From NCBI RefSeq assembly GCF_046105845.1, contig NZ_CP151004.1: DNA of 64,000 bases; one strand, given 5' to 3'. The translations under genes and the position numbers were made by a program. The notes below the pieces were generated by a model that did no database searches, was not told where the DNA came from, and was given only the letters and a program-made list of their open reading frames with translations. The first letter of the stretch is position 1, and each line of letters begins with the position of its first letter. This DNA is from Escherichia coli. Its GTDB lineage: Bacteria > Pseudomonadota > Gammaproteobacteria > Enterobacterales > Enterobacteriaceae. Of the stretch, positions 52,203 to 52,319 are shown in pieces.

Positions 52203-52209
52203 GATTGGC

Positions 52210-52310
52210 AGCTACCTGCCAGATAAGGCGTAAACGCCTTATCTGGCATACGTTCAGCACATTACCCCCAGGTCGGATAAGACGCGGCAAGCGTCGCATC
52301 CGGCACTTCA
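52210..52310. repeat. two REP-type palindromes between rlmG and fadH
   Basis: GCCTGCCAGATAAGGCGTAAACGCCTTATCTGGCATACG and GGTCGGATAAGACGCGGCAAGCGTCGCATCCGGCAC. Confidence 0.75.
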
Positions 52311-52319
52311 ATGCACGAT

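Follow-up and report, generated by a model that had tools for sequence, protein, structure and literature searches.

A higBA-less spacer between rlmG and fadH

The locus described here lies in a 64,000-nucleotide stretch of Escherichia coli DNA (hereafter the window; contig NZ_CP151004.1 of assembly GCF_046105845.1), in which two convergent genes meet at a short intergenic spacer. On the plus strand, rlmG (51066..52202) encodes the 378-aa 23S rRNA m2G1835 methyltransferase and ends in a TAA stop codon at 52200-52202. Opposite to it, on the minus strand and with its terminus towards rlmG, fadH (52320..54338) encodes the 672-aa NADPH-dependent 2,4-dienoyl-CoA reductase. Both proteins are full length; rlmG was identified from the list of open reading frames, the annotation of the closest genome and tblastn. 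The spacer itself spans positions 52203..52319, and with both reading frames intact its length of 117 bp, as given in the initial annotation, is correct. It is composed of 14 nt, a first repetitive extragenic palindrome (REP1), a 22-nt linker, a second palindrome (REP2), and 14 nt leading to the fadH stop codon. The same annotation had described the spacer as consisting almost entirely of REP palindromes, which agrees with our measurements: the two hairpins account for ~67 of 117 nt, and the REP-linker-REP unit (52217-52305) for 89 of 117.

The feature that sets this spacer apart is the absence of the toxin-antitoxin (TA) pair higB-higA (ygjN-ygjM), which occupies the site in K-12. HigB, an mRNA interferase of RelE-like type, acts in a translation-dependent manner; the K-12 HigBA system was characterised in 2010 (PMC2814082). 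Searches by tblastn with the K-12 HigB and HigA proteins returned no match anywhere within the 64-kb window, so that the absence noticed at first reading is real. The combination that marks a higBA system, a PF09907 HigB gene followed by one for a helix-turn-helix (HTH) antitoxin under an autoregulated promoter, is likewise lacking from the window, while the K-12 proteins match PF09907 and HTH_3. We refer to this form of the convergent rlmG-fadH spacer as the empty allele.

The surrounding gene order in the closest complete genome is exuR, exuT, uxaC, uxaA, ygjV, sstT, alx, ygjR, ygjQ, ygjP and rlmG, followed by fadH, a hypothetical gene, ygjK, ygjJ, ygjI, ebgC and ebgA. Over the 24 kb from 40000 to 64000, the window reaches no more than 98.5% identity to any of 5,426 complete E. 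coli genomes, indicating that its source lineage is absent from the finished genomes or that the segment was imported. The 3′ half of rlmG also carries substitutions private to the window when set beside five compared loci, at positions 51694, 51818, 51896, 51903, 51935, 51959 and 52061.

A degenerate BIME fills the spacer

REP1 (52217..52248, plus strand) is a y-type palindrome in inverted (iREP) orientation, recognised by inverted-repeat search, by alignment to K-12 and by a sub-threshold match to the naRNA4 family. Its two arms of 15 nt each (52217-52231 and 52234-52248) are 100% complementary and separated by 2 nt. This element had been called a perfect 30-bp palindrome, GCCAGATAAGGCGTAAACGCCTTATCTGGC; the sequence is present and its arms are indeed perfect, but the central AA is not palindromic, which makes it a perfect inverted repeat and not strictly a 30-bp palindrome. 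The linker (52249..52270), to which no strand is assigned, has a single match in the window where none is expected by chance, and it is conserved across all E. coli alleles of the locus. REP2 (52271..52305, plus strand), supported by folding, allele comparison and again sub-threshold naRNA4 similarity, is z2-like, oriented opposite to REP1, and forms an imperfect hairpin. Together, the two REPs make up one bacterial interspersed mosaic element (BIME) in inverse orientation between the two stop codons.

The folding of the spacer is far from random. As RNA, its plus strand has a predicted free energy of -53.6 kcal/mol (z = -5.6) and its minus strand one of -52.5 kcal/mol (z = -4.3), and on neither strand was any of 200 shuffled sequences as stable. 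Both REP hairpins appear in the minimum-free-energy and centroid structures of either strand, the REP2 stem retaining its internal mismatches. The hairpins were also considered as classical intrinsic terminators and ruled out, since the spacer has no T-tract. The scan of 51900-52700 that searched for terminators found no promoter-like site either. Against Rfam, the spacer gave no RNA family other than naRNA4, a REP-derived family, whose hits of 27-31 bits fall below the gathering score of 59.5. A strict REP-tail pattern matches REP1 alone within the window, and a loose REP-arm pattern matches ~20 further sites in the 64 kb, several of them intragenic and probably due to chance.

In its general build, the pair resembles the REP and BIME elements of E. 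coli (y, z1 and z2 REPs; BIME-1, BIME-2 and atypical BIMEs): two GC-rich palindromes of 32-35 nt, in inverse orientation, joined by a short linker and placed outside genes, where two convergent genes have their 3′ ends. It departs from them in detail. Canonical REPs, GC-rich palindromes of 30-40 nt that can fold into a hairpin, have GTAG at their foot (CTAC when read on the complementary strand), and a stem mismatch or bulge is needed for binding by TnpA_REP (PMC3333891). In this sense the K-12 and E69 copies at this locus are canonical: their y-type REP has CTAC and a mismatched stem, and their z2-like REP has GTAG. The foot motif is present in K-12 (CTAC) and in E69 and DETEC-P169 (GTAG), and absent from the window pair, where the tetranucleotide flanking REP1 is ATAC (52248-52251) and the one ahead of REP2 is CAGG. 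Because the orthologous copies retain CTAC and GTAG, the window BIME is a degenerate descendant of a canonical one.

Alignment of window REP1 to its K-12 copy, GCCGGATGCGGCGTAAACGCCTTATCCGGCCTAC, shows the changes in this palindrome at the base level. Five substitutions separate the two (window 52217-52251 against positions 817-850 of the K-12 locus), turning the K-12 arms GATGCGGCG and CGCCTTATC into GATAAGGCG and CGCCTTATC, so that the stem is now perfect; across the haplotype, GCCGGATGCGGCG...CGCCTTATCCGGCCTAC has become GCCAGATAAGGCG...CGCCTTATCTGGCATAC. The changes comprise one compensatory pair (G-C to A-T), the repair of a two-base stem mismatch, and the loss of CTAC. Such a pattern looks like the outcome of quasi-palindrome correction by template switching. 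Since both the GTAG motif and the stem mismatch required by TnpA_REP (PMC3333891) have been lost, the window BIME, judged by these motifs, is probably inert towards this enzyme. REP copy number at the locus is still changing, as seen in the empty allele of E. coli YL3 (locus L090, 799-953), where a 38-bp tandem duplication adds a second REP1 and brings the spacer to 155 bp.

Full, truncated and empty alleles in E. coli

K-12-like records have the order rlmG, 283 bp, higB, higA, 44 bp, fadH, with a spacer of 1055 bp. The same arrangement is published (Table 1 of PMC5120126), and the statement of the initial annotation that K-12 carries higBA between fadH and rlmG is therefore right. The position of higBA and the orphan higA of strains CFT073 and NRG857c have also been reported (PMC7232551). 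Compared with K-12, the window shares the site, the flanking genes and the rlmG-side BIME, and is without the whole unit of ~938 bp that holds the promoter, operators, higB, higA and one repeat copy.

Among the sampled genomes, four alleles were distinguished by spacer length: 1055/1056 bp (full), 731 bp, 773 bp and 117 bp (empty). The 731-bp allele has undergone an internal deletion of 324 bp, which removes the promoter, the operators and higB codons 1-79. What is left is the final 78 nt of higB and an orphan higA that is intact but has no promoter. The 773-bp allele combines the same 324-bp deletion with a more extended fadH-side REP structure; the deletion thus occurs with both the short and the long fadH-side structure (CRE1540, locus L002, 1000-1490; SCU-172, locus L003, 1000-1490). 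The outer junctions of the orphan-higA allele are identical to those of the window, and the two differ in that the orphan allele keeps higA and the window nothing of the cassette.

We then surveyed 5,426 complete E. coli genomes, a sample of finished RefSeq assemblies whose figures are not population frequencies. Any higBA DNA was present in 4,377 genomes: full-length higBA in 2,825 (52%), and a 5′-truncated higB with intact higA in ~1,550 (~29%, the allele of CFT073 and NRG857c). No higBA DNA was detected in 1,049, and a contiguous empty junction, counted when at least 80% of the query was covered, was found in 1,037; both estimates place the empty class at ~1,040 genomes, or ~19%. Taken with its short flanks, the spacer is shared at 100% identity by many strains that look unrelated. 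The survey upholds the view of a strain-variable locus, with full, truncated and empty states. TA content in E. coli is known to vary among strains at conserved locations and to decay by deletion (PMC7167474), and the absence of higBA in the window is accordingly a common allele of an already known polymorphism. The practical consequence is modest: the strain lacks one classic RelE-family TA pair of K-12, which matters only when K-12 results on TA systems or persistence are transferred to it. The by-products of this analysis are modest as well, namely the three-state census, the REP/BIME-bracketed joint, and the cassette at the same site across genera.

Direct repeats bracket the cassette

The rlmG-side BIME is common to every E. 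coli allele aligned, and the outer junctions are constant in all alleles examined, making presence and absence precise. Occupied alleles hold the cassette between the positions equivalent to 52305 and 52306. On the left it begins directly after REP2, which ends in GCGTCGCATCCGGCA, with ATGTCTGCCC (first bases ATGTCTG), and continues through higB and higA. On the right it ends in a second REP remnant of the same orientation, which reads ...TTGATTAACGCGACGTGCCGGATGCGT(T/C)GCATCCGGC(A/G), its occupied-allele context being TGCCGGATGCGT(T/C)GCATCCGGC(A/G), after which the sequence resumes with CTTCAA. In the empty allele, GCGTCGCATCCGGCA is joined to CTTCAA without interruption. With REP2 on one side and another REP or BIME of the same orientation on the other, the ~0.94-kb cassette is bracketed by direct repeats, and GCATCCGGCA (52296..52305, plus strand) is the sole copy of that repeat left in the window.

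The length of the bracketing repeats varies from 9-15 bp in most E. coli through ~55 bp in SCU-172-type alleles to an entire BIME in E. whittamii. In SCU-172, the fadH-side copy is a half-decayed BIME with the linker and most of REP2. Taken with the complete fadH-side BIMEs of E. whittamii and MOD1-EC7003, this makes the second repeat a decayed BIME and not a transposition footprint. When the interval between the two GCATCCGGC copies of SCU-172 (L003) was deleted in silico, the product was 117 bp long; it matches the empty spacer of MS20673 exactly and differs from that of the window at 1 nt. The corresponding product from SRCC 1675 (L092) has 3 mismatches to the window. A REP-bounded joint that predicts the empty spacer to the base constitutes a small refinement of the known polymorphism.

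The rlmG-fadH site in other Enterobacteriaceae

The site was followed across species in 80 Enterobacteriaceae loci found with RlmG. In almost every one, rlmG and fadH lie side by side in convergent orientation, and in more than 60 of the 80 the gap ranges from -4 to ~140 bp with no insert, so that emptiness is the older state at the level of the family. Two 'E. coli'-labelled records in the set of species representatives (L008 and L010) are also empty and bear the BIME.

Within Escherichia, E. whittamii carries higBA at the same site and in the same orientation, with 98% identity for HigB and 97% for HigA. A complete BIME stands on either side of its cassette, and the two share species-specific variants, which suggests that these BIMEs exchange sequence with each other. 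In Escherichia sp. MOD1-EC7003 the order is DUF1266 gene, higA (96%), full BIME, fadH, and higB is missing. Here the AT-rich DUF1266 gene (locus L006, 5333-6130; 35.6% G+C) stands in place of both higB and the rlmG-side BIME, next to the orphan higA.

Beyond the genus, diverged higBA pairs occupy the same position and orientation in Pseudocitrobacter faecalis, in 'Citrobacter sp. 18056' and in strain RIT691. In these three genera, identity is 64-69% for HigB and 72-83% for HigA, against 84-88% for RlmG. Homology across genera reaches ~170 bp upstream of higB, where the cassettes share their left boundary, TTCTGGAAG. The presence of the cassette at one and the same site in several genera argues for long residence and recurrent loss, and not for current mobility.

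Cargo other than higBA was encountered as well. The type strain of E. albertii (locus L007, from 1834-1860 onward) shows the start of the DUF1266 gene, interrupted by an IS10-like end at which the contig stops. Enterobacter sp. kpr-6 has a DUF3289 and DUF943 gene pair in the gap (locus L058, 5297-6681), and in two other species the gap holds arrays of local palindromic repeats, 370-450 bp long (L029, 5135-5515; L060, 5135-5590). This varied cargo indicates that the site accumulates small inserts across the family.

Origin of the empty allele

We consider it probable that the window allele arose by secondary loss of a long-resident cassette through REP/BIME-mediated deletion. Such a deletion would take place between the flanking direct repeats, by homologous recombination or by replication slippage, and would leave one BIME while removing toxin and antitoxin together. 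It may have happened in the lineage of the window itself, or else in a donor, the empty allele then being imported through recombination in the flanking genes. The anatomy of the locus, the frequencies of its alleles, the agreement of the predicted deletion product with an observed spacer and the cassette at this site in other species are direct observations. What we infer is the direction, loss as opposed to a cassette never gained, together with the deletion mechanism.

The cassette has been at this site for longer than E. coli has existed, to judge from its occurrence in other species, which favours loss. The decay series in E. coli is consistent with this reading: 2,825 full, ~1,550 truncated and ~1,040 empty alleles match the published decay of TA loci (PMC7167474) and the reported orphan higA (PMC7232551). 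The resemblance to other decaying chromosomal TA systems extends to a conserved location, a patchy presence, and a graded series of deletion and pseudogenisation, as in ccdO157 and in the surveys of Fiedoruk (2015) and of Ramisetty and Santhosh (2016), here taken in the form in which PMC7167474 summarises them.

The phylogeny of the flanks speaks less clearly. In neighbour-joining trees of the 780-bp flanks, which with 17 sequences are weak evidence, empty alleles fall into at least two haplogroups with a deep split between them, each of which also holds a full-higBA allele with almost the same flank sequence, and the trees are mosaic. Recombination, and not repeated deletion, could explain why empty alleles sit on several backgrounds. 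Third codon positions were compared between higBA and the 780-bp flanks in loci L001, L005, L091-L093 and L009: within E. coli, identity is 95-99% in the cassette and 82-97% in the adjoining ends of rlmG and fadH. The cassette could therefore coalesce more recently than its flanks and have spread by recombination; alternatively, the rlmG and fadH flanks may be unusually diverse within E. coli. As the trees, with their interleaved empty alleles, and the third positions, with a cassette less diverged than its surroundings, disagree in part, the direction can be given as a probability only. The pattern of one repeat copy in empty and two in occupied alleles is symmetric and by itself gives no direction. 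The linker variants GTTCAGC, GATTAGC, GATCAGC and GTTTAGC were also tried as a marker of direction; they grade into one another from species to species and have no diagnostic value.

Whether the strain acquired its spacer ready-made is a partly separate matter. Import of an empty allele by homologous recombination in rlmG and fadH would fit either origin of that allele, and we hold it to be a serious possibility, though we lean slightly against it. The fadH end of the window is nearest to 118UI, a full-higBA strain (4 mismatches in 800 bp), while its rlmG end groups elsewhere. The 117-bp spacer is 100% identical in many strains, yet the surrounding 24 kb stays at or below 98.5%, and the private substitutions in rlmG form a cluster at 51694-52061. 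The mosaic grouping on which part of this argument depends comes, however, from the same 780-bp flanks and 17 sequences, which are weak evidence.

A second scenario reverses the direction: the empty rlmG-BIME-fadH arrangement would be ancestral in Escherichia, never occupied in this lineage, and higBA would have entered next to or into a BIME elsewhere and spread by recombination. We judge this unlikely, although several observations would agree with it. More than 60 of the 80 family-level loci are insert-free, L008 and L010 (both labelled E. coli) are empty with a BIME, the cassette has a G+C content of 43.7% against 53-57% in the flanks, its relatives occur on plasmids (those of Erwinia at 71% identity), and within E. 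coli it is less diverged than the flanks. Against this, E. whittamii and MOD1-EC7003 carry the cassette at this very site, with about the divergence that vertical descent would give, and three other genera have it there too, sharing its left boundary. Nor is there insertion machinery, and the repeats at the ends are whole or partial BIMEs and not a short target duplication. Empty alleles beside near-identical full ones in two haplogroups further favour loss over an ancestral vacancy.

It is very improbable that the REP-associated transposase TnpA_REP (RAYT) produced the joint by cutting and rejoining the flanking BIMEs, with higBA as a BIME-bracketed module that would be excisable as a circle and might reintegrate. 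In vitro, TnpA_REP cleaves between C and T in iREPs and linkers and performs strand transfer between BIMEs (PMC3333891), and the cassette ends do coincide with REP feet. The determinants it depends on are gone in the window haplotype, however (the REP1 mismatch; CTAC changed to ATAC; GTAG to CAGG), the cassette is never found at a second site, and simple repeat-mediated deletion accounts for the joint. If it were true, REP pairs would be portable recombination sites that render small chromosomal cassettes excisable, and the window would display a post-excision joint whose REP pair has since been stripped of the features recognised by TnpA_REP.

An assembly or collapse artefact can be dismissed: REPs, being repeats, may mislead short-read assemblers, but 1,037 finished genomes have the identical contiguous junction, in agreement with the 1,049 that lack higBA DNA, and both flanking genes are intact.

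Mobility of the cassette

The initial annotation had interpreted the spacer as the empty site of a mobile TA cassette. The precise presence-absence polymorphism and the atypical G+C content stand; mobility genes, a target duplication and second sites were not found, and the word mobile is not supported for a unit that is confined to a single chromosomal site, contains only higB, higA and their promoter, and has REP arms as its end repeats. In the 5,426 complete genomes, the median is one cassette per genome; 4,381 of 4,382 places are chromosomal, all at the rlmG-fadH type of locus, and no real plasmid copy of the E. coli cassette was detected. The cassette encodes no integrase or transposase, its content being higB, higA and the promoter alone. 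No target-site duplication was seen, the flanking repeats being REP arms or whole BIMEs.

The ultimate source is a different question. The cassette has 43.7% G+C (38.4% in higB) against 53-57% for rlmG and fadH, and HigB relatives occur on 1,056 plasmids, the closest on Erwinia plasmids with 71% protein identity; phage relatives are distant ones only. Low G+C, a plasmid-borne HigB family and an insert-free site in most Enterobacteriaceae make an ultimately horizontal origin likely. What the cassette resembles is a long-standing resident lost time and again, not an element hopping in and out.

Possible role of the remaining BIME

REPs in general protect mRNA 3′ ends and attenuate transcription. 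By analogy, the BIME left in the window would provide the rlmG and fadH transcripts with stable 3′ hairpins that shield them from 3′ exonucleases, and it may attenuate read-through into the opposing gene. Titles on mRNA protection and on attenuation by REPs are among those cited in PMC8266576.

The position of REP1 raises a further possibility. It starts 14 nt past the rlmG stop codon. REPs located no more than ~15 nt from a stop codon can reportedly lower translation, a result attributed to Liang, Rudd and Deutscher in 2015. By the same analogy, REP1 might dampen translation termination of rlmG. The spacing is identical in occupied alleles and is thus not caused by the missing cassette.

A strain-variable gene beyond fadH

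Between fadH and ygjK, the window contains an open reading frame of 513 aa (54643-56184, minus strand) that is annotated as a hypothetical protein. Searches of Pfam and NCBIfam with this protein gave no match. Its G+C content of 53.9% is host-like. The strain-variable neighbourhood of which the initial annotation spoke is probably this gene, present in 269 of the 5,426 complete E. coli genomes, where it is single-copy and chromosomal in every case. The top match, at 99.8%, is in PCN033, a strain assigned to group D in the literature, and this provides the only hint to the phylogroup of the window.
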